Shown here: positions 731-21,480 of the stretch, piece after piece | Numbering within the stretch: position 1 is the first letter of the stretch | How the letters are laid out: every line of letters starts with the position of its first letter | NCBI RefSeq assembly: GCF_000179635.2 | Contig: NC_014833.1 | Span: forward strand, 330,001-362,000 | Origin: Ruminococcus albus 7 = DSM 20455 | GTDB taxonomy: Bacteria; Bacillota; Clostridia; Oscillospirales; Ruminococcaceae | Length of the DNA stretch: 32,000 nucleotides | Direction: 5' to 3' | Program-made: the position numbers and the translations under genes | Notes under the pieces: generated by a model | What the model was told of the DNA's origin: nothing | The model's input: only the letters and a program-made list of their open reading frames with translations | The model's database searches: none

Positions 731-3496
731 ATGAAACGATTTATTTCAGCAGCACTGATCGCTGCAATGGCGGCAGGAACGGTCTCGCAGTTCCCGCTTC
801 AGGCAACAGCGGCAGGAAACAGCTATGAGCTGGAAAACGGAACCATTTATGATGCAGGAGAGAACACTACAAAAGTACTGTCTTTGACAGGTGCAAGCGG
901 CGGTAAAGTCATCGACCTGAAAGATGCAGGCGATTCTGTTACCATATCAGCCAATATGGCAAGTGCAGGTATGTACAAGCTGACACTGCGTTACAGTCAG
1001 CCCTTTGATGAAGGCGGAAAATACCAGAACATACTTATCAACGGTGAGAATATCGGACAGATACAGTGTGCTTACACAGGTCAGAATAAATTTGCGGAAG
1101 TCAGCACCTTGGCATACCTTGATAAGGGAGCAAACAAGATTACCATTCAGGGATCCTGGGGCTGGACCTATCTTGATAAACTGACGATAGATAAAAGCGA
1201 GGTATCTGTAGGAAACATAAATACATCCCTATCCAATCCGAATGCTTCTGCACAGGCGAAGTCCCTATACAGTTTCTTGTGTGATACTTACGGGGATCAT
1301 ATTATTTCTGGTCAGCAGGAGTCCACTTGGATGGGCAGTGAAGATTATGAAATGAATATCATCAAGAACGCCAGCGGAAAATATCCTGCCCTTCGCGGAC
1401 TTGACTATATGGGCGATGACTTTTCAGGCTGCAACCGTCGTGCAAAAGCATGGTATGCAAAAGGCGGCATTGTTACGATATGCTGGCATTGTGGAAGTGA
1501 TTTCAGCGGAAGCCACTCGGAGGCACTTGCAACTGATCTTGACTGGAACAAGGCGCTGACTCCCGGAACAAATGAGTACAATAAACTCATAGCGGGTATG
1601 GACAAGGGTGCAAAGGCACTGCTGGAACTGAAGCAGGCAGGCATACCTGTTATATGGCGTCCCTTCCACGAATTTGACGGTAAGTGGTTCTGGTGGGGCA
1701 AAGGTGGAGCTGATAATTTCAAAAAGCTCTGGAGGATAATGTACGACCGCTATACCAATGTATGGGGACTTGACAATCTTATCTGGAATCTTGGTTATTG
1801 CGGAGACGTCAACAGCGGCTGGTATCCGGGTGATGAATATGTAGATATTGTCGGAGCTGATACTTACGTAGACAATACCAATTCACTCGTCGGTATATAT
1901 CAGAAAGCAGCACAGGTCACCAATAAAGCCGTTTGCCTGCACGAGAACGGTCCTATACCCGATCCCGATAAGCTGACAGCGGAAGGTGCAAAATGGCTGT
2001 GGTTTATGACATGGCACACTTCGTTCATTGATAGTCATGCTATAAATACAGCTTCGTATGTGAAGCACGTATATACCAGCGACTATGTGCTGACACTTGA
2101 TGAACTGCCTGATGTATATCACTATACTTCGGCAGGCAACAATGATACACCTCAGGAACTTCCTGCGGTGTCCGTTAAATATTCTTCCGGTCATCCCAAT
2201 AATATCATCAGCCGTAATGTTCCTGCATACGCTAGTGCAGGAAGAGCCTCTGACGGAAATGACAACTATTATTATACGGAATGGTCTGCAAATGCACCTG
2301 CATACCTTGCTTATGATCTTTCTTCTGTTCCAAGTTCAGACAGGAAGCAGGTACTTGCGGCATGGTACAATACAGGTACCTTTGATAACATCGGATATTA
2401 CGTCAATAAAAGTAATGAGCCTGTAAATTACACAATTGAACTCAATTCCGCACCGGGAGGTTCCTATCCTGCTGACGGTTGGGTAACTGCCGCAACAGTT
2501 AATGATAACCACTACAGCTCTCGCCAGCATTACATTGATATGCAGGGATACAACTGGATAAGACTTAATGTAAAAAAATCAGATAACGGACTTGTTAAGC
2601 TGAATTTTGATGTGCATAACGCTTCTGAAGGAGTATCTGACAGCTGGCTGTTCTTAGGTGATTCCATCACTGCGGGAAGTATGGTCAACTGTTATGGTAC
2701 AAGCTTTGCAGAGTTTATGAACCGTATTGATCCGAAGTATTATCCCGTTCAGCAGAATGGCGGTATAGGCGGTACATTAAGTTCTGACGGCAAAAATGCT
2801 ATAGATAGCTGGCTTCGCGACAACTCCGCAAAATATGTCAGCATCGCTTATGGCACTAATGATGCGTGGGGCAATCCAAACAATACACAGCGGTATTATG
2901 AGAATGTAAAGTACATGGTAGATGCCGTTATCGCAGCAGGTAAAACTCCTGTTCTGCCTAAGATACCGTATGCTACCAATAAGGATGTTGGCTCTAATAC
3001 AGGCTATTATAATGCGATGATAGATAAACTCTATCAGGAATACGGCTCTAAGATCGTTCACGGACCCGACTTTGATAAATTCTTCAGAGAACACACAGAA
3101 TATCTCAGCAGCGATGGGGTACACCCCAGTTCAGACGGATACGAAGCTATGCGAAAGCTTTGGGCGGAAACTATGTACGCAAATGTCCACTCGGGCAATC
3201 AGAATAGCGAAAAGACTTATCCCGATAATATCCGTGTAAGCTACAGCTCTCAGTATCATCAGATCAGATTTACATGGAACGCAGTGAAGAATGCTCAGAA
3301 CTACGGTATCGCAGTTTATCTGGCAGGAAAGTGGAGGATCCAGACTCAGTCCATACCGTCTTCCACTATGTCATATACAACTCCCAAGAACCTGACACCC
3401 GGCATGACATACAGGGTCGCTATAGCTGCTAAGGTCGGTGGTAAATGGGATACTGCCGGCGCTATCAAGAACTATGTAAGAGTTACTGTAAAGTGA
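731..3496 (+). CDS. Secreted multimodular enzyme: signal peptide, CBM35/CBM6-like module, GH26 beta-mannanase, beta-sandwich module, SGNH/GDSL esterase, C-terminal Fn3-like module
   Basis: 921-aa ORF with a strong SD. The signal peptide reads MKRFISAALIAAMAAGTVSQFPLQATAAG. The CBM35-like block reads YELENGTIYD..AGMYKLTLRYSQ..LDKLTID. GH26 signatures are ICWHCG, WRPFHEFDGKWFWWG (acid/base HE) and CLHENGP (nucleophile E). SGNH blocks are FLGDSITAGS (GDS at about 2657-2665), YGTNDAW and DGVHPS. Confidence 0.9.
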   Translation: MKRFISAALIAAMAAGTVSQFPLQATAAGNSYELENGTIYDAGENTTKVLSLTGASGGKVIDLKDAGDSVTISANMASAGMYKLTLRYSQPFDEGGKYQNILINGENIGQIQCAYTGQNKFAEVSTLAYLDKGANKITIQGSWGWTYLDKLTIDKSEVSVGNINTSLSNPNASAQAKSLYSFLCDTYGDHIISGQQESTWMGSEDYEMNIIKNASGKYPALRGLDYMGDDFSGCNRRAKAWYAKGGIVTICWHCGSDFSGSHSEALATDLDWNKALTPGTNEYNKLIAGMDKGAKALLELKQAGIPVIWRPFHEFDGKWFWWGKGGADNFKKLWRIMYDRYTNVWGLDNLIWNLGYCGDVNSGWYPGDEYVDIVGADTYVDNTNSLVGIYQKAAQVTNKAVCLHENGPIPDPDKLTAEGAKWLWFMTWHTSFIDSHAINTASYVKHVYTSDYVLTLDELPDVYHYTSAGNNDTPQELPAVSVKYSSGHPNNIISRNVPAYASAGRASDGNDNYYYTEWSANAPAYLAYDLSSVPSSDRKQVLAAWYNTGTFDNIGYYVNKSNEPVNYTIELNSAPGGSYPADGWVTAATVNDNHYSSRQHYIDMQGYNWIRLNVKKSDNGLVKLNFDVHNASEGVSDSWLFLGDSITAGSMVNCYGTSFAEFMNRIDPKYYPVQQNGGIGGTLSSDGKNAIDSWLRDNSAKYVSIAYGTNDAWGNPNNTQRYYENVKYMVDAVIAAGKTPVLPKIPYATNKDVGSNTGYYNAMIDKLYQEYGSKIVHGPDFDKFFREHTEYLSSDGVHPSSDGYEAMRKLWAETMYANVHSGNQNSEKTYPDNIRVSYSSQYHQIRFTWNAVKNAQNYGIAVYLAGKWRIQTQSIPSSTMSYTTPKNLTPGMTYRVAIAAKVGGKWDTAGAIKNYVRVTVK
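3218..3493 (+). other. C-terminal Fn3-like module (copy 1 of 4 in this window)
   Basis: YPDNIRVSYSSQYHQIRFTWNAVKNAQNYGIAVYLAGKWRIQTQ..TYRVAIAAKVGGKWDTAGAIKNYVRVTVK. It aligns with the C-termini of the ORFs at 14662..16248 (two copies) and 20006..21397. Confidence 0.7.
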
Positions 3497-3681: not shown

Positions 3682-3720
3682 AGAACATCATCACGGTATG
3701 ACGGTGTTCTTTTTTATTTT
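3682..3720 (+). terminator. rho-independent terminator for the plus-strand GH26-esterase gene
   Basis: AGAACATC (3682-3689) pairs with GGTGTTCT (3703-3710), including one G-U pair. TTTTTTATTTT follows. The T-run overlaps the stop codon of the convergent minus-strand gene. Confidence 0.55.
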
Positions 3721-5210
3721 CTTGCCTGTTCAAGGCATTTTTTAACAGCATTCATTATGGCATTTGAACTGTAGGTAGCGCCTGATACTGCATCAACTTC
3801 ATAACTCTGGTAATAGAGGATATCACCTGCGATCTTCTCATATGCTGAGTCGAAATACTCGGGTTCTTCCTCATCGGAATAGGCTGATATTTCAGTGATG
3901 ACATCATTCTCAATGGTTATGGTGACGTGTACATCTCCGTCATAACCGTAAGCTTTATCCTCATAGGTGCCGTTGTTGTAGATGTACTCAGGCTCGGGAG
4001 GCGCAGTGACAGGCGGCTGAGTCTGAACAGGCTCTTTTACTTCCTGACGCTGTTCTTCCTGCTTCTCATGTTTTTCTTCCTGTCTGTTGTCTTTGTGTTC
4101 TTCACGCTGTTCTTTGTGTTCTGATTGGTCTTCATGATCTTCCGTGTCTTCATGCTCATCCTGCTGTTCCTGATCTTCTTCGTGCCCTTCTTCGTCTTTA
4201 TCATCATTATCCGAAGAACTGTCTTTCTTGCCGGAACTTGAACTGTCCTTTTTTGAAGAACTGCTGTCTGATGAACTTTTGCTGTCGGAAGAACTGCTGT
4301 CGCCTGCGGCAGTCGATAAAGTGCCGTCATTGTCTGCACTCAGCCTTAATGCCGCTCTGTCTTCGCCGTCTGTCGGAGAAGTGTCGGTATTCTTCTTTAT
4401 ACTGATGGTCTTTGAAGCGGGTCTGCTCGTTTTTACCTTGTTCTGAGGTTTGCCGTAACTGCAAAAAGCGATGATACCGGTAAGCAGCACTACACAAGCT
4501 GTACTTGCGATATTCAGCCATGCCTTGCTTTCCGGGGACTTCTTCTTTACGTACCACTTTCTTATTCTGAGGATCATGTAAGCTCCGAATACTGCAGTAT
4601 ACACAACACAGCTGAAGAAATAACCTTCTATACCTGCCTTAGCCTTGGGTATAAACAGTATGATGATGTGAAGATATATCAGCGCATAGAAAACGTATGC
4701 CGCACGTTGTATATTCTTCCATTTTTTTGCGTTCATCTTTTTGCGTATCTTCTTGAAAGATATGACTGTAAGCGGTACCATTATCAGCACCAGTGCCGCA
4801 CATACCACACAGGTGAGCAGGAAGTCTGCTGTTTTGCTGAAATTCGGGTTGGTCAGCTGTTTTATATACGATATCCCGAAGAATACTATATGGGACAGCG
4901 TTACTGTTGCCGAGAAGATGGAAAGCTCGCCTCTTATTGGCATCAGGCGCTTTATAGCCTTGCTTCCGTCGGGGAGTACGCGCATACCCATTACGACCAT
5001 CCACAGTGCACCCGCCAGTGCACCTCTTGAAAAAAGCCCTATGACATACTTGCGTATAATGATATTTTCTACGGGCTGTTGTGCCAGTACTATCATAAGT
5101 ACCGATATCAGCGTGCCGCCGATATAGAATGCTGCGGGAGCTTTTTTTAGAGCACCCGCACACAGCACTGAGAACAGCACCGCGATGGTCAGAGCGATAA
5201 GAAATAACAT
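3714..5210 (-). CDS. Membrane protein: ferric-reductase/MsrQ-like polytopic domain, long acidic Ser/His-rich linker, extracytoplasmic FMN_bind domain
   Basis: 498-aa ORF. About 8 hydrophobic helices lie in aa 1-253, with His in helices (TLSHIVFF, LIYLHIIILF) as expected for b-haem ligands. A low-complexity linker spans about aa 254-408. The C-terminal block YEDKAYGYDGDVHVTITIENDVITEISAY..EVDAVSGATYSSNAIMNAVKKCL is an FMN_bind domain with the canonical ApbE target motif. The SD GTGAGGT lies upstream of the ATG at 5210. Confidence 0.85.
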   Translation of the reverse strand: MLFLIALTIAVLFSVLCAGALKKAPAAFYIGGTLISVLMIVLAQQPVENIIIRKYVIGLFSRGALAGALWMVVMGMRVLPDGSKAIKRLMPIRGELSIFSATVTLSHIVFFGISYIKQLTNPNFSKTADFLLTCVVCAALVLIMVPLTVISFKKIRKKMNAKKWKNIQRAAYVFYALIYLHIIILFIPKAKAGIEGYFFSCVVYTAVFGAYMILRIRKWYVKKKSPESKAWLNIASTACVVLLTGIIAFCSYGKPQNKVKTSRPASKTISIKKNTDTSPTDGEDRAALRLSADNDGTLSTAAGDSSSSDSKSSSDSSSSKKDSSSSGKKDSSSDNDDKDEEGHEEDQEQQDEHEDTEDHEDQSEHKEQREEHKDNRQEEKHEKQEEQRQEVKEPVQTQPPVTAPPEPEYIYNNGTYEDKAYGYDGDVHVTITIENDVITEISAYSDEEEPEYFDSAYEKIAGDILYYQSYEVDAVSGATYSSNAIMNAVKKCLEQARK

Positions 5211-5265
5211 ATTTTTATTACCTCACATTCTGTCGTTCGTTTTATACGACTAACTTCAATGAGAT

Positions 5266-5294
5266 ATTATACTTTATGTGAGCGATGTTGTCAA
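5266..5294 (-). promoter_or_regulatory. consensus sigma-A promoter of the MsrQ-like/FMN_bind gene
   Basis: On the minus strand: -35 TTGACA (5289-5294), a 17-nt spacer, -10 TATAAT (5266-5271). Confidence 0.65.
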
Positions 5295-5336
5295 TTAAAT
5301 ATTATATATTTTTACGAAAAGTTAATATTCACAAAA

Positions 5337-5357
5337 TTAGCCTTGGCTAACTTTGCG
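5337..5357. promoter_or_regulatory. palindromic candidate operator between the divergent promoters
   Basis: TTAGCC-TT-GGCTAA is a perfect 6-2-6 inverted repeat at 5337-5350, followed by CTTTGCG. A related TTAGCTATATCTAA-CTTTGCG occurs at 7562-7582. Confidence 0.3.
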
Positions 5358-5420
5358 TGAATTCGTCATTATGTTAGATTAGGTGAGACTAATCAGTGCC
5401 TTATTCGTTTAAAGATACTC

Positions 5421-5449
5421 TTGATTATTTCATGGTGATATAGTATAAT
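5421..5449 (+). promoter_or_regulatory. sigma-A promoter of the apbE operon
   Basis: -35 TTGATT (5421-5426), a 17-nt spacer, -10 TATAAT (5444-5449). This leaves a roughly 105-nt leader before the ATG at 5562. Confidence 0.6.
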
Positions 5450-5561
5450 TATCCATGCGGATAGTAGCGGCTAACTAATTTTGGCAGTGATAAAGAAGTT
5501 ATGGTACTAACGGTGCAGCTGCCTTCGTGACATAAAACAGCGGCAGATCGGAGAGAAAAGG

Positions 5562-6605
5562 ATGAAGAATAAAATTGTGTCAGCTGTTATTACGGCAGTA
5601 CTGTTCATACTTACCTCATGTGCTGCAGATGCTCCCGATGACAGCATCGCAGGTGTGACAGGTGAAAAGAAAAGCAGCGGCTCGGTATTCGCTATGGATA
5701 CCTATATGACGATCACTGCCTATGGTAAAAACGGCGAAAAAGGGATCGAAGCTGCGCAGAAGGAAATAACAAGGCTTGAAAAACTCTGGTCTGTAACTGA
5801 CGAAAACAGTGAGATATACGCTATCGACCACAGCGGCGGAACTGATGTGGAAATAAGTACCGAGACCGAAGAGATACTCAGTTTTGCAACAGATATGCAC
5901 AGACGTACAAAAGGAGCACTTGATATCACCCTTTATCCTGTACTGAGGGCGTGGGGCTTTACCACGGGTGAATACCGTGTTCCCGATGAAGATGAGATAT
6001 CTGCGCTCCTGGAATGTAAGGGCGTTGATATGATAAAGGTGGACAGCGGAAAAGTGTCTGTTCCTGAAAACACCGAGATTGATCTTGGTGCAATAGCGAA
6101 GGGCTGTGCGGGAGATGCTGCGGCAGAGGCTTTGAAAGATCAGGGAGTGACTTCGGCACTGCTTGACCTTGGCGGTAATATACAGACCGTAGGAGATACA
6201 AAGCCTGATGGCACAAAATGGAAGGTAGGCATACGCGATCCCTTCGGGGAGGGAAGTATAGGCACACTATCTGTTGGAGAATGTGCAGTCATAACATCGG
6301 GCGGATACGAAAGATTCTTTGAACAGGACGGAGTGATATACAAGCATATCCTAGACCCTGAAACAGGCAGACCTGCCGAAAGCGGTCTGGCTAGTGTCAC
6401 GATAATCGGAAATGAGGGCAGGACGTGCGATGCGCTTTCGACATCGCTGTATGTTATGGGTCTTGATGATGCCTGCGGATACTGGCGGGAAAATGGTGAT
6501 TTCGATATGATACTGGTATCGGATGAAGGCGGTATATATGTGACCGAAGGCATATCCGATAGTTTTGCTCCTTCAGCGGGAAATGTAACAGTGGTAAAAA
6601 GATGA
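5562..6605 (+). CDS. apbE: FAD:protein FMN transferase (ApbE/Ftp), lipoprotein
   Basis: 347-aa ORF. The lipobox is FILTSC. Family blocks are FAMDTYMTITAYG, LDITLYPVLRAWGF, IDLGAIAKG, LLDLGGNI, AVITSGGYERFF and YKHILDPETGRPA. Confidence 0.93.
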   Translation: MKNKIVSAVITAVLFILTSCAADAPDDSIAGVTGEKKSSGSVFAMDTYMTITAYGKNGEKGIEAAQKEITRLEKLWSVTDENSEIYAIDHSGGTDVEISTETEEILSFATDMHRRTKGALDITLYPVLRAWGFTTGEYRVPDEDEISALLECKGVDMIKVDSGKVSVPENTEIDLGAIAKGCAGDAAAEALKDQGVTSALLDLGGNIQTVGDTKPDGTKWKVGIRDPFGEGSIGTLSVGECAVITSGGYERFFEQDGVIYKHILDPETGRPAESGLASVTIIGNEGRTCDALSTSLYVMGLDDACGYWRENGDFDMILVSDEGGIYVTEGISDSFAPSAGNVTVVKR

Positions 6606-6961
6606 GAACAAGAACTATCTGTATCATCATTACATTGTTGATACTTTCGACAGCTGCGGTATGGTGCGCACACATCATGAAACCGAAAAACGGCAAAACA
6701 GCAGTTATATCACAGGACGGCAAAGTGCTTTACCGCATAGACCTTTCATCTGAAAAGGACAGGACTATAGAAGTAACATACAATGGCAGAAAAAATATCA
6801 TTGAGATAAAAGACGGCAGGATACGTATGAAGGATGCTGATTGTCCCGACCATATATGTGTGGATACAGGATGGCTGGAGGACGGTAAGCCCATAGTATG
6901 TCTGCCGAACAGACTTGTGATAGAGTATGAGGAAAGCGATATCGACGGTACAGCGAGGTGA
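6602..6961 (+). CDS. NusG domain II-containing (DUF1312-type) membrane-anchored protein
   Basis: 119-aa ORF. Its ATG overlaps the apbE stop (ATGA at 6602-6605). It has an N-terminal TM anchor, then IEIKDGRIRMKDADCPDHICVDTGW..GKPIVCLPNRLVIE, typical of this family. Confidence 0.8.
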   Translation: MRTRTICIIITLLILSTAAVWCAHIMKPKNGKTAVISQDGKVLYRIDLSSEKDRTIEVTYNGRKNIIEIKDGRIRMKDADCPDHICVDTGWLEDGKPIVCLPNRLVIEYEESDIDGTAR

Positions 6962-6962
6962 G

Positions 6963-7469
6963 ATGATGGATACAAAAAAACTTACGCGCCTTGGTCTGCT
7001 GACCTGCCTTGCGCTTATAATATTCATTGTTGAATTGCGTATACCCGATATCGTTCCCATTCCCGGGGTAAAACTTGGTCTTGCAAACATTGTGACCGTG
7101 TATTGCATTTACAACTACCGCCCTGGAGAAACTGCCATGATGCTGTACAGCAGGATACTTCTGGGGGCACTGTTCAGCGGCAATCTTATGGCGCTGTGGT
7201 ACAGTATAGCAGGCGGCACCCTCTGCTTTGTCGGTATGGTTTTTCTGAAAAAGATCATACATGAGGACAATATGTGGTTTTTGAGCATAGCAGGTGCTGT
7301 GCTGCATAATATCGGTCAGATAGCCGTTGCTATACTTGTGCTGAAAAGTACGTCGGTCATAGCATATCTGCCATTCCTGATGTTATCGGGGTGTATCGCT
7401 GGAGCTTTCACGGGTCTGTGCGCACAGATGGTCTGCAGAAGACTTAAAAGATCCGGCAAGGTTAGCTAA
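6963..7469 (+). CDS. Gx transporter family protein (Hpre_diP_synt_I / ECF S-component-like)
   Basis: Family blocks are LTRLGLLTCLALIIFIVE, PGVKLGLANIVTV, YSIAGG and GAVLHNIGQIAVA. I place the start at the ATG at 6963 (MMDTKK), 2 nt after the upstream stop and behind GAGGTG, rather than at the longest-ORF start at 6927. Confidence 0.85.
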   Translation: MMDTKKLTRLGLLTCLALIIFIVELRIPDIVPIPGVKLGLANIVTVYCIYNYRPGETAMMLYSRILLGALFSGNLMALWYSIAGGTLCFVGMVFLKKIIHEDNMWFLSIAGAVLHNIGQIAVAILVLKSTSVIAYLPFLMLSGCIAGAFTGLCAQMVCRRLKRSGKVS

Positions 7470-7499
7470 AACTTACTTGTAAACATTTGTCAAAAAGAA

Positions 7500-7528
7500 T
7501 TGACGAATTTCTAGTGATATGGTATGAT
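7500..7528 (+). promoter_or_regulatory. sigma-A promoter (extended -10) of the dockerin-protein gene
   Basis: -35 TTGACG (7500-7505), a 17-nt spacer ending in TGG, -10 TATGAT (7523-7528). Confidence 0.6.
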
Positions 7529-7614
7529 ACTAATGCAGAAACAAGGTAATATGCCATGCGGTTAGCTATATCTAACTTTGCGGCATAAATATATAATGAT
7601 AAGGAGTAGTAAAT

Positions 7615-9138
7615 ATGAGAAAAACAAAAAGAATTTTCAGCTTGTCGATATGTGCTGCAATGGCAGCAGCTTCGATACCTATGAATGTTTTTGCCGATGA
7701 GGTAAAGGCAGAGGAATACGTATACGGCACTATGAAGATACCCTATGCAAAGTTTTATGAGGCTGAGGCTGAGAACCTGAGCAATGCTGATGGCCTTGAT
7801 GCTGTAACTTCTGCAACTGTCAACAAGACGAGGATGAACGGTGAGGGTCAGCTTTTTGAAGGTACATACAACAATGCGGGCGAGGAAGGTTCTGATGAAC
7901 TGGGTAAGATCTACGGCGTTGTATACCCCGTTGCAATAAAGCAGGCAGACCTTGAGGCTCTGGGCGAGAACAACTACGGTTTTACTGCAGTTTCCGAAAA
8001 GCCCGAAGCTTACAAGACCGTTACCGTTGCTGAAGGTGATGCAAGCTTCTCGGCTGTAAACGATGAGAACCCCGATAATGTAACAGGTTCCATGACACTG
8101 AACACCAATACCCCCTGGGGCGATTATGCAGGAAATGTTACAGGCAAGCCCGAGAACGGTACTGTCATCTATGGTATAATCATAAAGACCAAGAACGGTG
8201 AAGCTTACGCACTCCGTCACGAGCAGAACATCTGGAGAAATGCGGAGTTCTCATGGTCATCAGGTGTAAAGACCACCGAGTCTCACGGCATCGCACTTGA
8301 TTACCAGGGCTTTGAGAGCCTGATGGGAAATACCATTACCGAGATGGAATACATCACTGCGACAGGCTATGTTAAGGTAGATGTAGGTGAGGTTTATGTT
8401 CCTGTTAAGTTTGTTGGCGGAATCGCTGTTGAAAACACTGCTGTAAGTGCAGGCAAGGCAGATATAGTACTGACAGATGTTCCCGAGGATTTTGATATCT
8501 CATACAGCATCGAGGGTCTTGAAGCTGTATTCAAGGATAACGGATTTACTTTTGCAAATGCAAATCCGGGCAGCTATACCCTTTCTGCTAAGGACAGCAA
8601 GGGCAAGTATGCAGATATCTCTACAAGTTTTATGCTGACAACAGCTGATCTTCCTGCTGCATTTGACGGTGAGGAGAATAAGCTGACTGCAGCTGAGGGC
8701 TTTACAGCTGAACAGCTCGAAGCATATATCAAGAATATTTCTTCCGTTACTGTAAATGAAAAGGAGTATTCCGCAAAGGGCAAAAGAGCTAAGGTGATCA
8801 TCAAGGGCGACGGCACACTTGATACCGAGAGCGATGTATTTGCTGAGGGCGAGAATTTTGAGATAACTGTAAAGGCAACAGGCTATGATAATGATCTGGC
8901 ATTCACATACACCAAAAAGGCTGGTGTGGAGCCTGTTGAATATAATAGCGGTGATGTAAACGGAGATAATGCCGTAAACATTACTGATATATCCATGATA
9001 TCAGCTCATGTCAAAGGCAAAAAGCAGCTTGACGAAAAGGGATTCAAGGCAGCTGATGTAAACGGTGACGGTAAGGTAAATGTTAGCGATATCGTTGCTA
9101 TAGCTGCTCATGTCAAGGGCATCAAGCTTATAAAGTAA
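7615..9138 (+). CDS. Secreted dockerin-containing protein of unknown function, with an N-terminal DAVTSAT motif
   Basis: 507-aa ORF with SD AAGGAG. The signal peptide ends ..IPMNVFA/DEV. The N-terminal region holds GLDAVTSATVNKT (aa 60-72). Ig-like central segments follow. A segment ISSVTVNEKEYSAKGKRAKVIIKGDGTLD..ITVKATGYD is reminiscent of DUF1533/Shr-HID-type repeats, from memory only. A dockerin closes the C-terminus. Confidence 0.85.
   Translation: MRKTKRIFSLSICAAMAAASIPMNVFADEVKAEEYVYGTMKIPYAKFYEAEAENLSNADGLDAVTSATVNKTRMNGEGQLFEGTYNNAGEEGSDELGKIYGVVYPVAIKQADLEALGENNYGFTAVSEKPEAYKTVTVAEGDASFSAVNDENPDNVTGSMTLNTNTPWGDYAGNVTGKPENGTVIYGIIIKTKNGEAYALRHEQNIWRNAEFSWSSGVKTTESHGIALDYQGFESLMGNTITEMEYITATGYVKVDVGEVYVPVKFVGGIAVENTAVSAGKADIVLTDVPEDFDISYSIEGLEAVFKDNGFTFANANPGSYTLSAKDSKGKYADISTSFMLTTADLPAAFDGEENKLTAAEGFTAEQLEAYIKNISSVTVNEKEYSAKGKRAKVIIKGDGTLDTESDVFAEGENFEITVKATGYDNDLAFTYTKKAGVEPVEYNSGDVNGDNAVNITDISMISAHVKGKKQLDEKGFKAADVNGDGKVNVSDIVAIAAHVKGIKLIK
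8950..9135 (+). other. type I dockerin module (two EF-hand-like repeats)
   Basis: GDVNGDNAVNITDISMISAHVKGKK ... ADVNGDGKVNVSDIVAIAAHVKGIK. Confidence 0.9.
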
Positions 9139-9176
9139 GCCATCCGATTTCATATTCATAATATACAGAGCAGAAA

Positions 9177-9213
9177 GCGCCTCTTTTTTTGATGAAAGAG
9201 GTGCTTTTTGTTT
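9177..9213 (+). terminator. rho-independent terminator
   Basis: GCGCCTCTTT (9177-9186) pairs with AAAGAGGTGC (9195-9204), including one G-U pair. TTTTTGTTTG follows. Confidence 0.7.
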
Positions 9214-9235
9214 GTTACACCAAAACTGAAATACC

Positions 9236-9278
9236 AAAGGACAGATACTATAGAACGTATCTGTCCTTTTCTTTTTTG
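9236..9278 (+). terminator. second, tandem rho-independent terminator
   Basis: AAAGGACAGATAC (9236-9248) pairs with GTATCTGTCCTTT (9257-9269): 13 bp with an 8-nt loop. TCTTTTTTG follows. Confidence 0.7.
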
Positions 9279-9635
9279 TCGAAACAAACAATAATATAGT
9301 ATCGTTCCAGATCCCGAGTGCGATCCATGTCGTTTTTTGTAATAATAGCACAAACTGTTTTTGTTATGCCCGTAAAAATATCGTATCATCGTGTTGGACA
9401 TAAGGCGGTATTTTATTAAAAAACTTACATATTGCTACAAAAAAACGCTATTTGTTTACAAAAAATTACGAAACGAGCGAAAGTTACGAAAAGCAAATGT
9501 TAACTTTTTCGAGATGTTTTTACTATATATAGATATCAAATGAGCACAAAACACTATATATGGAAACGAAAATGTTTTCTGAAAATAATTAATTAAAAAT
9601 GCTCCCCTATTAAAGAAAAGTATACCCAAACTTCC

Positions 9636-9664
9636 TTGATAATTATTACATAATAATGTATAAT
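9636..9664 (+). promoter_or_regulatory. candidate sigma-A promoter of the LRR-dockerin gene
   Basis: -35 TTGATA (9636-9641), a 17-nt spacer, -10 TATAAT (9659-9664). A second CTTGATAATTATT copy lies at 9716-9728. Confidence 0.45.
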
Positions 9665-9796
9665 TTAATCAGGATAAATGATATAGGCAAATTCAATATA
9701 AATTATAAAAATTAACTTGATAATTATTTTGAATGTGTACTTTATATTTCGTGGTATAAACAAATAACAAAAGGTAATTTGAGTGGAGGGATCTTT

Positions 9797-11746
9797 ATGA
9801 CAAAGAGATTTTTAGCAGGACTTATGACTATCGCTTTAGTATTCGGCGGAACAGCAATTCCTCAGAGCATAAATATAATAGATACCTCCATTACTGCAAG
9901 CGCAGACAGAGTGGAAGGCTATTTTGAATATGCTTTCATAGATGACGTCAGAAGCGGCATAAATATTAAGGGCTACAACGGCGGCGAATCTAACGTTGTT
10001 ATACCTTCTTATATCAATGGCGTGCCTGTTGTTGGCATAAGCGGATATGCTTTCAGTGGAAAATCCTACATCAACAGCGTTACAATACCCGAAACAGTTA
10101 CCACAATCGATATGTATGCTTTCTATTCCTGCACAAACCTCAGGACAATAAGCAATGCAAGCGGTCTGAAAAAGATAGGTATGTATGCTTTCTTCGGCAA
10201 CACTTCTCTTACCAAGATAACTATACCCGGCGGCGTTACTGAGATAGGCTACGGAGCTTTTGATTCTTGCACAAATCTCGAAAAAGTCAGCCTGCCTAAG
10301 AACCTTACAAATATCCACGGTATGGCATTCAACGCAACCAAGTGGCTCGAAAATATGCAGAAAAAGAGCGATCTGGTCATCGTAAACGGCGTAGTTCTCG
10401 ACGGCAGAAACTGCAACGGTTATGTAAAGATACCTGACGGTGTAGTTAGTATCGGCGGTAATGCTTTTGCAAAGAACAATAATATTTCCGGCGTTGGCAT
10501 ACCTAACAGCGTAAAGTCCATAGGCGCATTCGCATTTGGCAGCTGCGGCAGAATAAGGAACATAATAATACCCGGCAGCGTAACAAGTATAGACTATGAT
10601 GCTTTTAAGGGCTGTTACAATCTTGAAAGTATATATATACCCAACAGCGTTACATACATCGGCTACGATGCTTTTACAGATACAAAGTGGCTTGCAGCTC
10701 AGCAGGCTAAGAGCTCTCTCGTAGTAGTCAACAATATCGTGATCGACGGCAGAAAATGTTCAGGCAGAGTAGTTATACCCAACGGCACAAAGGCTATCTG
10801 TGATAACGCATTCGCACTGAATAGCATGATGACCGATGTTTCTATACCCGGAAGCGTAAAGGAGATCGGAGATTACGCATTCGTTTCCTGCACAGCTCTC
10901 CAGAAGATAGTTATACCCGAAGGTGTTACCACCATAGGTTCAAATGCTTTCCTCGAAGCAAGAAGCCTTCAGTCGGCAGTTATACCCGACAGCGTTACAT
11001 ATATGGGTCAGGAAGCTTTCAAGGAATGTTCTGCACTTGCAGAAGTTACCGTTCCCGGCAGCATCGAAACAATAGAACTTGCAACATTCCAGGAATGCCA
11101 GAGCCTCAAGTCCGTTACCATAGAGGGCGGCGTTAAGAACCTGAATGAATATGCATTCTCAAACTGCAGCGCACTTACCAATATGAATATCTCCGGTAGT
11201 GTTGAAAACGTAAAGTGGCGCGCATTCTATGGCTGCACCAGCCTTTCCGAAGTTACTTTCTACGAGGGTCTTACCACTATCGCAGCTTATGCATTCCAGA
11301 AATGTGATTCGATAATGACCATCACTCTTCCCAAGAGCCTGAAAAATATCACCGCTACATCTTTCAACTACAGCGTTCCCGGATTTAAGATCAGAGGCTG
11401 TGCAAATACTACAGCACAAAGACTTGCATCATACGCAAACGTAGGTTTTGAAGTTCTTGAAGCTCCAATGTACTCCGGCGATGTTATGGTACAGAACAGC
11501 GAACCCAGATTAGATACTATCAAAGCTGACAACAAGAATACATCAGCTGCAGTTTCCGGAAAAGGCGATTTAAACAATGACGGAAACATAAATGTATCTG
11601 ATATATCCAAGATAGCAGCTCACATAAAGGGCAAGAAGATGCTTGGTAATGGTAAGGTTGCAGACATAAACAACGACAGCACAGTCAATGTTACCGATCT
11701 TTCGCTGCTGGCAGCTCATATAAAGGGCAAGAAGATAATGAAATAA
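9797..11746 (+). CDS. BspA-type leucine-rich-repeat (LRR_5) protein with a C-terminal dockerin
   Basis: About 20 repeats of the form IPxSVTxIGxxAFxxCxxLxxIxIP. The signal peptide reads MTKRFLAGLMTIALVFGG. I place the start at the ATG at 9797, 6 nt after GGAGGG, rather than at the TTG at 9779 used by the ORF track. Confidence 0.9.
   Translation: MTKRFLAGLMTIALVFGGTAIPQSINIIDTSITASADRVEGYFEYAFIDDVRSGINIKGYNGGESNVVIPSYINGVPVVGISGYAFSGKSYINSVTIPETVTTIDMYAFYSCTNLRTISNASGLKKIGMYAFFGNTSLTKITIPGGVTEIGYGAFDSCTNLEKVSLPKNLTNIHGMAFNATKWLENMQKKSDLVIVNGVVLDGRNCNGYVKIPDGVVSIGGNAFAKNNNISGVGIPNSVKSIGAFAFGSCGRIRNIIIPGSVTSIDYDAFKGCYNLESIYIPNSVTYIGYDAFTDTKWLAAQQAKSSLVVVNNIVIDGRKCSGRVVIPNGTKAICDNAFALNSMMTDVSIPGSVKEIGDYAFVSCTALQKIVIPEGVTTIGSNAFLEARSLQSAVIPDSVTYMGQEAFKECSALAEVTVPGSIETIELATFQECQSLKSVTIEGGVKNLNEYAFSNCSALTNMNISGSVENVKWRAFYGCTSLSEVTFYEGLTTIAAYAFQKCDSIMTITLPKSLKNITATSFNYSVPGFKIRGCANTTAQRLASYANVGFEVLEAPMYSGDVMVQNSEPRLDTIKADNKNTSAAVSGKGDLNNDGNINVSDISKIAAHIKGKKMLGNGKVADINNDSTVNVTDLSLLAAHIKGKKIMK
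11564..11743 (+). other. type I dockerin module
   Basis: GDLNNDGNINVSDISKIAAHIKGKK ... ADINNDSTVNVTDLSLLAAHIKGKK. Confidence 0.9.
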
Positions 11747-11798
11747 GATAGCAATATATCAATGATAAGAATTCATAAATATACTTCCTCTCAAGAAA

Positions 11799-11835
11799 TT
11801 CCCCCGCATATATCATACGGGGGAACTTCTTTTTG
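11799..11835. terminator. bidirectional terminator between the convergent LRR-dockerin and kinase genes
   Basis: TTCCCCCG (11799-11806) pairs with CGGGGGAA (11818-11825). CTTCTTTTT follows on the plus strand, and TTTCTT follows on the minus strand. Confidence 0.7.
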
Positions 11836-11876
11836 GATAAACATAATATTGTATCGGCGGGATCATAATATCAGTA

Positions 11877-13223
11877 TCAGCGTGCGGGGCTCGTGACAGC
11901 TTCTTGCTCGGGGCGGTACATGAGTATGCTTACGTTGAATATCCCGTTGTGAGTTTCGATGACCATTGAGCCTTTGTATCGTTTCACGATGTTCTGTACA
12001 GAATGAAGACCTATGCCATGCCCATCCTTGTTAGTTATCGGCAGATCGTTCCTGCCAATCTCTATTCTGCCGCGATAGGGATTGTATATGGATAGTACCA
12101 GTGTTTTCGGGTTCAGCATACCTATTCGGACATTTACAAGACGGTTGTCACCGTCAAGCTCGGATGCTGCACGTATGGCATTTTCCACCAGGTTTCCCAT
12201 AACTGCGCACATATCAGATTCTTTCACCGGCAGATCATCACCTAAGTCTATGGACCAGTTTATCGCGATCTCCAGCGACTTTGCAACTTCATCATAGTGA
12301 CTTGCTATAGCATCTACTGCCTGATTTTCGCATAGTATTTTGTGACTCTGTGAGATATGCTCCACAAGGGGAGCGAGGTATTCGTTCAGTTTGTCCGTCT
12401 GACCTTTTTTCAGATATTCATTGATGAGGAGTATATGCTGGCGGAAATCGTGGCGGAGCTGGGAGGATTCCTGTAAGTAGCGCCTTGTTTTTCTGTACTG
12501 GTTTTCTTCCATCTGAAACAGGTCAAGGCTTCGTTCCATTTCCGCACGCTCGGTCAGCTTATTTGAAAGCCACCAAAGTATATGAAAAAGGAACAACGTT
12601 ATCAGCGGGATATTAAGAAATGTAACAATGCAAATCTTTCTCAGTCTGCCTGTCATGACATTCTCCGCACTGACGGGATTTATCCAGATAATTACAACAG
12701 CACCCACTACAGGGGCTATGGAAAGAACGCGCCAAGCCTGATCGAGACTTTCGTTATCAAACATATCCGGAATCTTTTTGAACAGCGTTCGTGCAAAGAC
12801 CACCCCGATAGATGATGCGACCCCAAGACATATCGTACCTGAAAGCTGGGTATAGACATTATATGTGTTTTTCAGTTCAAGGGGCGCGGTGAGAAATGTG
12901 TTGTAGGTGGTAGCAAAGCCGCACAGGAATACAGAATTTGCAAACGCAAATATTTTTTTGAAAACGGACAGTTCAAAGCAGAAATGATATATTATAAAAA
13001 GTGTCGCCATTGATGGGAAAAGCAGGGTATTCGTTGGGATCCGCATAATTGAGCATAGTGCGGCGCCGCCTATAGTGAAGAACGAGAGCAGTATCGCAAG
13101 TGAGCAGAACAGAAACGGTTTGTTGACCCTTCGGAAACGATACACAGGAATTATAGCGATGGCAGCGGCAGGTATGATCATTGCAAGCTCGGTGAAATAC
13201 CGCAGCATCAGGCTGAAATTCAT
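11877..13223 (-). CDS. AgrC/ComD-like membrane sensor histidine kinase (GHKL, HATPase_c_5 type)
   Basis: 448-aa ORF with 6-7 N-terminal TM helices. The N-box reads MGNLVENAIRA and the G-box reads DGHGIGLHSVQNIVKRYKG. Its ATG overlaps the stop of the upstream regulator (ATGA at 13220-13223). Confidence 0.85.
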   Translation of the reverse strand: MNFSLMLRYFTELAMIIPAAAIAIIPVYRFRRVNKPFLFCSLAILLSFFTIGGAALCSIMRIPTNTLLFPSMATLFIIYHFCFELSVFKKIFAFANSVFLCGFATTYNTFLTAPLELKNTYNVYTQLSGTICLGVASSIGVVFARTLFKKIPDMFDNESLDQAWRVLSIAPVVGAVVIIWINPVSAENVMTGRLRKICIVTFLNIPLITLFLFHILWWLSNKLTERAEMERSLDLFQMEENQYRKTRRYLQESSQLRHDFRQHILLINEYLKKGQTDKLNEYLAPLVEHISQSHKILCENQAVDAIASHYDEVAKSLEIAINWSIDLGDDLPVKESDMCAVMGNLVENAIRAASELDGDNRLVNVRIGMLNPKTLVLSIYNPYRGRIEIGRNDLPITNKDGHGIGLHSVQNIVKRYKGSMVIETHNGIFNVSILMYRPEQEAVTSPAR

Positions 13224-13960
13224 ATATCGAGCCTCCTGCGCATACGCGATGCAGCGTACTTCGTGAATTTTGCAAGAATATCCTTGCGCCCGCGTCTGCG
13301 GACCGGATATATGATCTCGTCCTGCATGATTATCTGATCGCCCCTGACCTGTGAGGCATAATCCATGTTGACTATTACGCCTCGGCTGCAGAACAGGAAA
13401 TTCGGCTCATTTTCCAAAGCAGATTCCAGTTCGCCGAACAGCATGATGCTATGCTTTACTTCGCCTGTGATCAGTTTAACATCGACTGAGTGATTATTGG
13501 AAAGCACAGCGACTATCTCGGAAAGGGGTATCTCAACTACCATGTGTGGGATGTTTACTTTCAGCATTTTTTCCTCTGCATCCATATCACGTATGGTCCT
13601 GCTCATGATCTCGGCAAAGGCAGCATACTCAAAGGGCTTGCACAGGTAGCCTTTGGGCTGGGAAGGGAATGACTGAAAAACGAAATCGCGTGTGGTGGAC
13701 ATAAAAATGATACCGATATCACGGTCAGCTATACGCAGTTGTTCTGCAAGCGTTAGTCCGTCCATTTCACCCATGCACACATCAATAAATACGATCTCAA
13801 ACATACCTTTTCGGTAGGATCTTAGAAATTCCTCGGCGGATGAGTAATTTGCTGTCCTTACATTACAGTTGCGACGATCGTTGAAAAAACGGTCAAGGCA
13901 GTTCTTTATGACGATGCGGTCGTGTTCAAGGTCATCAACGACCGCGATATTAAGCTCCAT
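13220..13960 (-). CDS. LytTR-family response regulator (AgrA-like)
   Basis: 246-aa ORF. The receiver domain reads IAVVDDLEHDR..VFIDVCMGEMDGL. The C-terminal LytTR-type domain reads VNIPHMVVEIPLSEIVAVLSNNHSVDV..FLFCSRGVIVNMDY. The SD is GAGAGGTG. Confidence 0.85.
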   Translation of the reverse strand: MELNIAVVDDLEHDRIVIKNCLDRFFNDRRNCNVRTANYSSAEEFLRSYRKGMFEIVFIDVCMGEMDGLTLAEQLRIADRDIGIIFMSTTRDFVFQSFPSQPKGYLCKPFEYAAFAEIMSRTIRDMDAEEKMLKVNIPHMVVEIPLSEIVAVLSNNHSVDVKLITGEVKHSIMLFGELESALENEPNFLFCSRGVIVNMDYASQVRGDQIIMQDEIIYPVRRRGRKDILAKFTKYAASRMRRRLDI

Positions 13961-14005
13961 AAATTCACCTCTCTGACTAAGTTATTGCTTAATATATACA
14001 AATAT

Positions 14006-14034
14006 ATTATACCATAGTGACAATTAAAATACAA
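14006..14034 (-). promoter_or_regulatory. sigma-A promoter (extended -10) of the response regulator/kinase operon
   Basis: On the minus strand: -35 TTGTAT (14029-14034), a 17-nt spacer ending in TGG, -10 TATAAT (14006-14011). Confidence 0.55.
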
Positions 14035-14050
14035 GATGAAAAATGACCGT

Positions 14051-14079
14051 TCACGTAAGTTTTATACAACTCACGCAAT
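14051..14079. promoter_or_regulatory. imperfect 9-bp direct repeats, candidate LytTR-regulator binding site
   Basis: TCACGTAAG (14051-14059) and TCACGCAAT (14071-14079) start 20 bp apart. They lie exactly between the two divergent -35 boxes (14029-14034 and 14085-14090). Confidence 0.3.
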
Positions 14080-14084
14080 TTCTA

Positions 14085-14113
14085 TTGACATTTTCGTTCG
14101 TTTATATTACAAT
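14085..14113 (+). promoter_or_regulatory. sigma-A promoter facing the Gly-rich protein gene, about 550 nt upstream of its start codon
   Basis: -35 TTGACA (14085-14090), a 17-nt spacer, -10 TACAAT (14108-14113). Confidence 0.5.
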
Positions 14114-14591
14114 TCTTAGTATAGCGTTGAAAATGAAGCACATCTACCATTTGTTCAAAACTTTATGAACAGCAAAAGATGACATTTTCGTGTAAAAATG
14201 ATGATCTCATCATTCGGAAGAATAGCGGTTTTATCGGATGTATGTGCATTTAAGTGCGCTGTTGCTAACTTTTCTAAGACGATAGATTGAAGGATAGTTA
14301 TTGTATATGTCGCCGGGACAGGCGATTCCCGGTTGCAGATATGATATATTTTTATGTCAAATATATAAGATAAATCTTTAAATATATATAAAAAATATTA
14401 ATAATAGTGATTTTAATGATAGCAAAAATGCAAATAAATGGATTATTTGTGGAGATTTAATATAATAAAACTAAATCATCTGTAAACTTTTGTTCTGAGT
14501 TGTACGGTCGTCTTATGAATATACAGAATGTTGTCTGTATCGGATATATCTGTATATTGACCTTATCTTTCAGGAATACTTTTCAGTCAAT

Positions 14592-14626
14592 AAAAGGGTA
14601 TCCACAGTGGTAATGGATACGCTTTT
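14592..14626 (+). terminator. weak terminator/attenuator-like hairpin in the leader of the 14662 gene
   Basis: AAAAG-G-GTATCCA (14592-14604) pairs with TGGATAC-G-CTTTT (14614-14626): 7+5 bp with one G/G mismatch. It is AT-rich and sits 35 nt before the ATG. Confidence 0.25.
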
Positions 14627-14661
14627 AAAATATCATATTCATTCTAAGGAGGAACTAGAAA

Positions 14662-21397: not shown

Positions 21398-21480
21398 GAT
21401 CGTTCCTCCGTTTTACAGTTATTGCCCACCGAAAGACTGTTTAGCGGTATGACAATATTTTAACCGATATTTCAAGAACT

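Follow-up and report, generated by a model that had tools for sequence, protein, structure and literature searches.

A putative metal-regulated, flavin-based electron-transfer locus with a Tp47-like, dockerin-bearing surface protein in Ruminococcus albus 7

Why is a secreted protein that ends in a type I dockerin encoded directly beside a flavinylation locus in Ruminococcus albus 7 (DSM 20455)? The question arises in a 32,000-nt stretch of the genome (NC_014833.1, positions 330,001–362,000, forward strand; hereafter the window, to which all coordinates refer). Here, a gene for an MsrQ-like membrane protein with an FMN_bind domain diverges from a unit that encodes ApbE, a flavin mononucleotide (FMN) transferase, together with homologues of EetA and EetB, and the dockerin gene follows. 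A preliminary description of this DNA had proposed that the locus serves as a redox arm of a cellulosome. Our analysis leans towards a different answer: we consider it moderately likely that the locus encodes an extracytoplasmic electron conduit that is based on flavin, responds to metal and most likely serves reductive iron uptake. Its components, including the dockerin protein, would form one module under a shared operator. Gene calls were obtained from a listing of open reading frames combined with Pfam and NCBIfam scans, and promoter and terminator sites from a consensus scan (Table 1). All open reading frames lie exactly where the preliminary description had placed them and are as it described them.

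The dockerin protein was assigned to the locus because its homologue is syntenic with the MsrQ-like/FMN_bind gene. A homology search with the non-dockerin part of the protein returned at least 188 clusters in Ruminococcus, Oscillospiraceae and Lachnospiraceae, and the closest named relative was from R. albus (84% identity). A scan of a genome collection yielded 295 relatives, from which 80 loci were kept and compared by tblastn with the window proteins. Of the 69 loci for which 1.5 kb or more of downstream sequence was available, 62 have the start of the MsrQ-like gene within 600 bp of the surface-protein gene, downstream of it and on the same strand; among the 47 loci with 5 kb or more, apbE was present in 33 and eetB in 35. 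R. flavefaciens and Oscillospiraceae metagenome-assembled genomes (MAGs) carry a five-gene cassette on one strand, encoding the surface protein, a Ferric_reduct and FMN_bind fusion, ApbE, a NusG_II protein and a PF07456 protein. A Lachnospiraceae MAG retains just the first two of these genes, 14 bp apart, and in R. albus KH2T6 the genes are rearranged in the way seen in the window. This synteny, together with a palindrome common to the three units, thus upholds the functional link of the dockerin protein to the ApbE/MsrQ-like locus that had first been suggested. A lack of synteny between the dockerin gene and the apbE locus in relatives had been named as grounds for abandoning that link, and the gene is clearly syntenic.

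The palindrome, GTTAG-N6-CTAAC, sits in both intergenic regions and at all three promoters of the locus. When at most one mismatch was allowed, the window contained four matches, all of them in these two intergenic regions (0.92 expected). In the 80 loci, the core TTAG-N6-CTAA was found 79 times in the 300 nt upstream of the surface-protein gene (23 kb) and 62 times in the other 1,115 kb, which corresponds to an enrichment of about 60-fold upstream of the cassette; shuffled upstream regions contained a mean of 0.79 sites. The sites are concentrated in two zones, roughly −60 to −40 and −140 to −100 relative to the start codon, and usually lie after the −10 element and ahead of the ribosome-binding site; the flanking positions extend the consensus to R-GTTAG-Y-N4-R-CTAAC-Y. 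Because the stem sequence is conserved and not covarying, a DNA operator is favoured over an RNA hairpin. An Rfam search of the whole window at the gathering threshold gave zero matches, so no riboswitch accounts for the leaders.

The remaining palindromes precede genes for Fe_dep_repress/Fe_dep_repr_C (DtxR-family) proteins, FeoB, flavodoxin and FtrD-like proteins, and also those for a MacB-type ABC ATPase, DUF3793, DUF2325, an HMA-domain protein and apbE as a separate unit. Among the 80 loci, flavodoxin was found in 19, FeoB in 9 (mostly divergent and adjacent) and a DtxR-like protein in 4, always encoded by the first gene of the operon. Judged by the genes that follow it, the palindrome set is the signature of a predicted starvation regulon for a metal, most likely iron. 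Genes for DUF3793 and DUF2325 occur recurrently beside flavodoxin behind the same palindrome (loci L054, L056, L062, L080, L010, L011 and others), and therefore look like members of the metal-starvation regulon.

We do not claim that the palindrome is a known operator. The Rex box of Clostridia, TTGTTAA-N4-TTAACAA, differs in half-site spacing, Fur/PerR boxes do not match, and the IdeR/DtxR box has GTTAG/CTAAC half-sites with a spacing unlike that of the palindrome. Two other motif guesses were rejected at chance level: CCATGCGG occurred twice (0.84 expected), a count equalled by 20 of 100 shuffles, and CTAACTTTGCG with two mismatches gave 10 matches (7.8 expected).

Promoter-like sites are present at the three positions where the preliminary description had placed promoters. 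The 17 promoter-like matches in the region (14.8 expected) are as a total not above chance; the three sites of the locus are among the four best-scoring ones and are correctly placed. The consensus scan found a strong terminator-like hairpin behind the dockerin-protein gene and none between eetB and that gene.

Table 1. Coordinates of the genes, domains, residues and predicted regulatory sites of the locus in the window
Feature	Position	Strand	Details
MsrQ-like/FMN_bind membrane protein	3714–5210	−	498 aa; polytopic N-terminus, C-terminal FMN_bind
FMN_bind domain, residues 422–494	3729–3947	−	PF04205, 1.3e-16
Canonical ApbE flavinylation motif D473-A-V-S-G-A-T479	3774–3794	−	Matches D-x-x-[S/T]-G-A-[S/T]
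Low-complexity linker, ~160 residues (~255–415), Ser/Asp/Glu/Lys-rich	3966–4448	−	Sequence
His181, transmembrane helix 6, candidate axial haem ligand	4668–4670	−	Invariant in 7 orthologues
His107, transmembrane helix 4, candidate axial haem ligand	4890–4892	−	Invariant in 7 orthologues
Promoter-like site, MsrQ-like gene	5294–5266	−	TTGACA-17-TATAAT, 12/12 matches
Operator-like site 1	5336–5351		Palindrome ATTAGCCTTGGCTAAC
Operator-like site 2	5378–5393		Palindrome ATTAGGTGAGACTAAT
Promoter-like site, apbE-eetA-eetB	5421–5449	+	10/12 matches
Operator-like site 3	5460–5475		Palindrome GATAGTAGCGGCTAAC; just downstream of apbE-unit −10
ApbE/FmnB-type FAD:protein FMN transferase, lipoprotein	5562–6605	+	PF02424, 1.8e-82; lipobox LTSC
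EetA homologue, NusG_II domain, N-terminal transmembrane helix	6602–6961	+	PF07009, 2.3e-34
EetB homologue, 'Gx transporter', ECF-S-type FAD exporter subunit	6927–7469	+	PF07456, 3.4e-40
Operator-like site 4	7461–7476		Palindrome GTTAGCTAAAACTTAC; one mismatch, upstream of surface-gene −35
Promoter-like site, surface-protein gene	7500–7528	+	10/12 matches and extended TG
Operator-like site 5	7561–7576		Palindrome GTTAGCTATATCTAAC; perfect consensus, between −10 and ribosome-binding site
Surface protein, 507 aa	7615–9138	+	Signal peptide, Tp47-like, Ig-like, Shr-like HID, linker, type I dockerin
Tp47-like domain, residues ~32–265	7708–8409	+	AF2 model, Foldseek, hhalign
ApbE-like motif D62-A-V-T-S-A-T68, candidate flavinylation site Thr68	7798–7818	+	Alignments
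Shr-like HID (formerly DUF1533) beta-sandwich, residues 351–426	8665–8892	+	PF07550, 2.6e-9
Type I dockerin, residues 446–497	8950–9105	+	PF00404, 2.6e-13
Intrinsic terminator-like hairpin ending the surface-protein unit	9236–9269	+	13 bp stem, then T run
AF2, AlphaFold2; ECF, energy-coupling factor; FAD, flavin adenine dinucleotide; HID, haemoglobin-interacting domain.

The unit of a lipoprotein apbE, a NusG_II gene and a Gx-transporter gene was recovered by all three Pfam models, as had been described. ApbE also matches the NCBIfam ApbE model, at 2.3e-32, which is under the cut-off of that model. The ApbE and FMN_bind domains are encoded by divergent neighbouring genes, and the PF07009 and PF07456 genes adjoin each other beside apbE, the arrangement of an EetA/EetB FAD-export pair. 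EetB is PF07456, an ECF-S-type protein required for FAD export and for flavinylation of PplA in Listeria (PMC9973259), and PF07009 is labelled EetA in Data Set S1 of the same study. No ECF-T or ECF-A partners of EetA/EetB were found in the window, to which this search was limited.

The membrane protein carries the C-terminal FMN_bind domain with the DAVSGAT target that the preliminary description had noticed. The domain ends in EVDAVSGATYSS (D473–T479), and an alignment with seven orthologues showed D473, A474, S476 and T479 to be invariant in the context (Y)EVDAVSGAT. The positive-inside rule, applied to the sequence, suggests eight transmembrane helices in an N-out/C-out topology, with the FMN_bind domain outside the membrane. 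The linker that precedes this domain varies in length and composition among the orthologues, and this acidic stretch of approximately 160 residues is presumed to form a flexible tether through the cell wall. The label 'MsrQ-like', which the preliminary description had also used, held in part. In its favour are weak NCBIfam matches to MsrQ (4e-5) and MamZ (1.8e-7), PF01794 matches in five of the seven aligned orthologues (best 2.5e-8) and the invariance of H107 and H181; however, a search at E ≤ 10 gave no PF01794 match on the window protein itself.

The surface protein was confirmed to be secreted, with a Sec-type signal (...NVFA/DE), no N-terminal lipoprotein anchor and a terminal type I dockerin. 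Near its N-terminus, D62, A63, S66 and T68 are invariant across 59 homologues (pattern D62-A63-x-S/T-S66-A-T68), and D[AT]x[ST]SAT was found in 79 of the 80 genome loci. R201, H202, W207, E222 and H224 form a further conserved patch in the same domain. This motif equals the ApbE target motif D-x-x-[S/T]-G-A-[S/T] (PMC12052999) except for Ser in place of Gly, and it is near-identical to the DAVSGAT of its membrane partner. With an ApbE-type motif of its own, the surface protein is probably a link or the terminus of the electron chain, not merely an acceptor.

The fold of the domain that bears this motif leads to Tp47 of Treponema pallidum. Tp47 (TP0574), a 47-kDa lipoprotein, is the immunodominant antigen of syphilis and has long been labelled an atypical penicillin-binding protein, a role that has been doubtful since its structure appeared in 2002. 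A full-length AF2 model of the surface protein (pLDDT, the per-residue confidence score, 84.9) gave just generic tandem Ig-like matches in a fold search (template-modelling (TM) score <0.2), and the signal emerged after residues 31–270 had been isolated and modelled separately (pLDDT 92.5, predicted TM score 0.90). The single match of this domain in the Protein Data Bank (PDB) with E<0.001 by Foldseek was 1O75 (E 1e-5, probability 1.0, TM score 0.62, 16% identity), whose sequence was checked as that of Tp47. By hhalign, the surface-protein family aligned with the Tp47 family profile at 96.7% (E 4e-10, 111 columns), and with the single 1O75 sequence at 15% probability, where the N-terminal segments alone were aligned. 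The aligned segments pair YGTMNIPYADFYAAE with YGYATLSYADYWAGE and VDAVSSAT with FDAVSRAT, so that YG...Y(A)D(F/Y)(Y/W)A.E and (V/F)DAVS.AT are common to Tp47 and the surface family. A HMMER search with the family profile against PDB sequences gave no Tp47 match even at E ≤ 10, and the Pfam models PBP-Tp47_a (PF14889) and PBP-Tp47_c (PF14888) did not match the window protein at E ≤ 10 (5.9e-18 and 4.9e-12 on Tp47 itself). The surface protein is a remote relative of Tp47 and not a Pfam-defined member. The Tp47 family itself has the invariant motif D-[AT]-V-[ST]-R-A-T-x-x-H-G, with Arg at the position of Gly in the canonical ApbE motif. In Tp47 and the clostridial relatives, a Cys at the N-terminus provides for a lipid anchor.

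The relationship extends to the gene neighbourhood. In T. pallidum, a 360-aa protein with a weak Ferric_reduct match and an FMN_bind domain is encoded 110 bp downstream of tp47; this gene is very probably TP0572, whose membrane protein Deka et al. (2015) listed, with one other treponemal protein, as bearing a flavinylation motif. On a Clostridium perfringens-type contig, a Tp47-like gene (protein P0138) heads the identical five-gene cassette; P0137, a close relative of P0138, is named as a Clostridium perfringens MAG protein. The membrane proteins encoded next to tp47 in both genomes align with the MsrQ-like protein of the window, including histidines at the positions of H107 and H181, and their linkers are far shorter; the Tp47-like partners in these genomes are lipoproteins. 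Two further proteins, P0148 and P0152, have PBP-Tp47_a/c domains fused to a C-terminal FMN_bind domain. A different set of partners was found in Clostridia locus L094 (339–6586), where the same palindrome precedes three genes and a Tp47-like protein with fn3 is followed by a multi-FMN_bind protein, ApbE, an FMN_bind protein and a NapH-like (Fer4_5) protein, with no MsrQ-like protein; more than one kind of flavinylated membrane conduit may therefore work with the Tp47-like module.

These parallels led us to a tentative proposal, to which we give somewhat less than an even chance. The Tp47-like domain may represent an undescribed class of extracytoplasmic redox protein in Firmicutes and spirochaetes that acts as the terminal reductase of MsrQ-like/FMN_bind conduits, either as a new ApbE substrate (at the Thr of (V/F)DAVS-x-AT) or as a docking partner of the tethered FMN. 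If so, Tp47 would work with TP0572 in periplasmic electron transfer, probably for reductive metal acquisition, and R. albus would display a Tp47-type device by means of a dockerin. The two proteins also differ. Identity is about 16%, Tp47 has Arg where the window motif has Ser, and it is held by a lipid and not by a dockerin or sortase anchor. The window protein has additional Ig-like and HID domains, and Tp47 is annotated as penicillin-binding, not as redox. What they share is the N-terminal fold, the downstream Ferric_reduct and FMN_bind neighbour and, in a clostridial relative, the whole cassette.

Several variants of the Tp47-like proteins and their partners were seen in passing. The N-termini of P0148 and P0152 resemble the Ig-like and HID module of the Ruminococcus family (...GSYTVTVSDAKNKYA.VSTTFVLST...), and the two families therefore share a domain vocabulary. 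The MsrQ-like/FMN_bind protein of T. pallidum (L092, 7415–8497) has almost no linker and the site D-V-V-S-E-A-T, with Glu for Gly, so the sites of the treponemal pair, S-E-A-T and S-R-A-T, both deviate from the consensus at the same position. Proteins of about 940–980 aa with two tandem Tp47-like modules occur in L015 and L016 (R. albus 8 and a related MAG), L047, L088 and L090. The R. albus 8-type tandem protein (10001–12900 in both L015 and L016) ends in a dockerin, and no gene for an MsrQ-like protein was seen within 10 kb of it; in L015, an apbE-eetA-eetB set with a palindrome of its own is found on the opposite strand, 4.5 kb upstream.

Taken as one conduit, the locus may operate as follows. 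EetA and EetB, with ECF energising subunits encoded elsewhere, would export FAD as their homologues do in Listeria. The lipoprotein ApbE would then move FMN from FAD to Thr479 in the canonical motif of the FMN_bind domain, and probably also to Thr68 in the invariant, non-canonical motif of the Tp47-like surface protein. A bis-His haem b (H107/H181) is expected to carry electrons across the membrane, as family homology and the invariance of both residues suggest, and flavodoxin is a candidate cytoplasmic donor because it is often encoded adjacent to the cassette. From the haem the electrons would reach the FMN carried on the flexible tether of about 160 residues and pass to the Tp47-like protein, a partner by synteny and a presumed recipient in this step. 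That protein would be held at the surface by a dockerin in the R. albus clade and by sortase in most relatives; Tp47 and its clostridial counterparts would use a lipid at the N-terminus. Extracellular Fe(III) is the most likely final acceptor, and the resulting Fe(II) would be taken up via FeoB; this choice is based on the palindromes ahead of feoB, flavodoxin, ftrD-like and DtxR-family genes and on the feoB and flavodoxin genes that adjoin the cassette in many genomes.

Several points weigh against this reading of the locus. The biochemical steps, as distinct from the component synteny and the shared operator-like motif that were observed, are all drawn from family knowledge. Many of the comparison loci are MAG contigs. 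The window has neither an iron-uptake gene nor a DtxR-like regulator, the evidence that connects the palindrome with the DtxR-like protein is circumstantial, and members of the DtxR family can also sense Mn. The membrane protein of the window lacks the PF01794 match, as noted above, and no NAD-binding domain and no quinone or Ndh2 genes were found nearby. The motif around Thr68 is non-canonical, and because Ser replaces the canonical Gly, and an invariant Arg does so in the Tp47 family, it could be structural or bind something else. In a model ApbE substrate, replacement of this Gly by Ala reduced flavinylation to about 50% (PMC12052999).

Among the alternatives, the one that survives best is a dissimilatory pathway of extracellular electron transfer (EET) like that of Listeria, in which reducing equivalents would be placed onto iron, humics, flavins or quinones to rebalance fermentation. 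In the Listeria EET locus, flavinylation and FAD export are indeed the work of ApbE, EetA and EetB, both systems end in an extracytoplasmic flavinylated (here, putatively so) last carrier, and insoluble acceptors are well suited to a surface flavoprotein on a long tether; such roles have been suggested for cell-wall proteins with several flavins (PMC8238504). However, neither the window nor the conserved cassette contains Ndh2, Dmk (DmkA/B), PplA-type or ECF-T genes, and FmnA is also missing from the R. albus locus. In Listeria, the quinone pool crosses the membrane and the terminal protein is a lipoprotein with two FMN_bind domains, whereas the R. albus locus has an MsrQ-like haem protein and a Tp47-like terminal protein of a wall- or cohesin-anchored type. 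The chain also holds just one or two flavins, and the operator with its neighbours (feoB, flavodoxin, DtxR-like) is better explained by starvation-induced uptake. Ferric reduction is the assay read-out in Listeria. On this evidence, we consider dissimilatory EET unlikely.

Repair of the envelope or defence against oxidative stress would be another use for such a chain, with the Tp47-like protein reducing oxidised surface proteins, oxygen or peroxide. The model here is MsrPQ (YedYZ) of E. coli, in which a membrane b-haem protein of the same superfamily feeds an extracytoplasmic partner encoded by the neighbouring gene. The membrane domain in R. albus is MsrQ-related, rubrerythrin and flavodoxin genes adjoin the cassette in some loci, and the hosts are strict anaerobes that meet transient oxygen. 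The R. albus partner, however, is not a molybdopterin Met-sulfoxide reductase, and the FMN_bind fusion and the ApbE and FAD exporter in the operon set the locus apart from MsrPQ. Moreover, the cassette encodes neither an MsrP-type molybdoenzyme nor a thioredoxin or peroxidase domain, a conserved Cys pair is missing from the Tp47-like domain, and the regulon includes feoB, ftrD-like and DtxR-like genes. This explanation is therefore held to be quite unlikely.

The redox arm of a cellulosome, as first proposed, would have the MsrQ-like/FMN chain feed a scaffoldin-displayed protein for fibre deconstruction, for example by Fenton-type or oxidative chemistry. The dockerin is genuine, with two Ca-binding repeats (DVNGDNAVNITD and DVNGDGKVNVSD) and R. 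albus-type recognition residues, for which the pattern V/I-T-A-A has been described (PMC4081043); the window is rich in glycoside hydrolases (GHs) bearing dockerins or carbohydrate-binding modules (CBMs), and the link to the ApbE locus is real. What weighs most against the cellulosome is the distribution of the anchors. Among the 80 loci, 60 surface proteins have a sortase-type anchor (xPxTG, a hydrophobic stretch and a basic tail), 15 have none or another type, and a dockerin was found solely in the R. albus clade (4 copies and a further one with a frameshift); R. flavefaciens, a species that does build a cellulosome, has copies of the sortase-anchored kind. R. albus has 58–90 dockerin proteins, 0–1 cohesins and no genuine cellulosome (Dassa et al., PMC4081043), and no cohesin turned up in the window. 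Because it is confined to one clade that is poor in cohesins, while R. flavefaciens and most relatives use sortase, the dockerin is best described as a lineage-specific substitute for a wall anchor, and its presence does not indicate that the protein takes part in fibre breakdown. Moreover, T. pallidum and a C. perfringens-type genome, neither of them fibrolytic, have the cassette as well, the operator marks feoB, flavodoxin and DtxR-like genes and not those of carbohydrate-active enzymes, and the next dockerin gene, which encodes leucine-rich repeats (LRRs), lies beyond the terminator without a palindrome. The cellulosome part of the preliminary proposal was thus not sustained, and we regard it as very unlikely.

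Capture of haem or haemoproteins, with the HID and Tp47-like domains binding a haem source and the reductase chain extracting or reducing its iron, would fit an iron-type regulon too. The MsrQ-like protein itself needs haem, and the Shr-like HID is present; shr of Streptococcus pyogenes is controlled by the DtxR-family repressor MtsR. Nevertheless, the cassette encodes no NEAT domain and no haem ABC transporter, the Tp47 family proper has no HID and yet keeps the synteny, and the HID is a generic beta-sandwich whose match is weak in several orthologues, which makes haem capture highly improbable. Least probable of all is a cell-wall enzyme (the penicillin-binding DD-carboxypeptidase that the original biochemical report on Tp47 reportedly proposed) next to redox genes through a shared envelope location only: Pfam and the PDB do name Tp47 a penicillin-binding protein, but the SVTK motif once proposed to bind penicillin lacks conservation even among members of the Tp47 family, the synteny with the MsrQ-like/FMN_bind gene is tight and spans phyla, FMN_bind fusions exist, and the conserved residues are those of the ApbE-like motif.

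The metal-regulated conduit that we favour belongs to a type of system already known from comparative genomics, the MsrQ-like ApbE flavinylation cluster with EetA/EetB. Such clusters were defined, and an assimilatory iron-reductase role was suggested for some of them, by Meheust et al. (2021, eLife, PMC8238504), and further work was reported by Huang et al. (2024, mSystems, PMC11334425). Ferric_reduct and FMN_bind fusions beside apbE in Clostridia are labelled 'MsrQ-like' in Data Set S1 of PMC9973259. The R. albus locus shares with these systems apbE, FMN_bind, the conserved His pair, the proposed iron-reductase role and probably a PF01794-type haem membrane protein, and it differs in that the published account centres on Actinobacteria and on forms with an NAD-binding domain or VIT1. 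It can also be compared with the eukaryotic FRE/STEAP reductases and bacterial P19/FTR1 systems, which likewise pair a ferric-reductase-superfamily haem protein with a predicted external reduction of Fe(III) to Fe(II) and import of Fe(II) (FeoB in 9 of the 80 loci). Unlike those, the R. albus cassette has no cytoplasmic NADPH/FAD domain, no P19 and no FTR1, and its surface step would proceed via the tethered FMN and the Tp47-like protein. P19 clusters with FMN_bind genes have been reported (PMC8238504).

The known ApbE substrate classes are FMN-bind1/2, NqrB/RnfD, DUF2271, DUF3570, Flavodoxin_4 and FMN_red (PMC8238504). The MsrQ-like flavinylation surveys make no mention of Tp47, DUF1533/Shr, dockerin, sortase or a GTTAG-N6-CTAAC regulon, and PF14889 and PF07550 were not found among the rows listed of their supplementary tables, which is a weak negative. 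Beyond Deka et al. (2015), no literature that links Tp47 or TP0572 to flavin, ApbE, MsrQ or ferric reductase was found in a search of papers that can be read without subscription. A Tp47-like terminal protein with an invariant motif, the parallel with tp47-TP0572, the swapping of anchors and the GTTAG-N6-CTAAC regulon thus appear to be undescribed in the searchable literature.

These findings give the MsrQ-like flavinylation systems, a class that is recognised but still uncharacterised, a conserved terminal component that had not been annotated before, and the iron-type operator provides a regulatory handle that predicts when the system is expressed. For Tp47, a major antigen in the diagnosis of a bacterium that is very difficult to study, they yield a concrete hypothesis of function that is cheap to test. 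They also show that in the R. albus lineage, which is poor in cohesins, a dockerin can take the place of a sortase signal on surface proteins that are not carbohydrate-active enzymes, which bears on the role of its dozens of dockerins, and they suggest a route for reductive iron uptake across a thick wall in strictly anaerobic, apparently quinone-poor Firmicutes of the gut and rumen.

Other genes of the window were considered as possible members or substrates of the system. The LRR_5-dockerin gene at 9779–11746 (+) was rejected as a member of the unit, since it has its own promoter-like site (9636–9664), lies beyond the terminator and has no palindrome; an LRR_5-dockerin gene also adjoins the cassette in L003. 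An FMN_red protein of 314 aa (18820–19764, +) was rejected as an extracytoplasmic ApbE substrate because it has no signal peptide and no [ST]GA[ST] motif; it has a Cys-rich C-terminal extension and could be a cytoplasmic flavin reductase. Genes for a 2-oxoacid:ferredoxin/flavodoxin oxidoreductase at 22796–25169 (−), encoding POR gamma and a POR_N/TPP_enzyme_C/Fer4 fusion, are a possible low-potential electron source, but they are 13 kb away with no palindrome link.

The window contains two BspA-type LRR_5 proteins, one with a dockerin (the gene at 9779–11746) and one with DUF285 repeats (20006–21397, −). Two mannanase-type GH26 genes were found: the one at 731–3496 (+) encodes CBM35-GH26-GDSL esterase-fn3 with no dockerin, like the CBM35-GH26-CE3 protein of R. 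albus (PMC4081043), and the one at 16328–17989 (−) encodes CBM35-GH26-dockerin. An AgrC/LytS-like GHKL histidine kinase (HATPase_c_5) and a LytTR response regulator are encoded at 11877–13960 (−), for which no link to the locus was found. The G+C content is low (33–36%, against about 45% elsewhere) at 9001–10000, 14001–15000 and 21001–22000, and these segments coincide with long intergenic regions.

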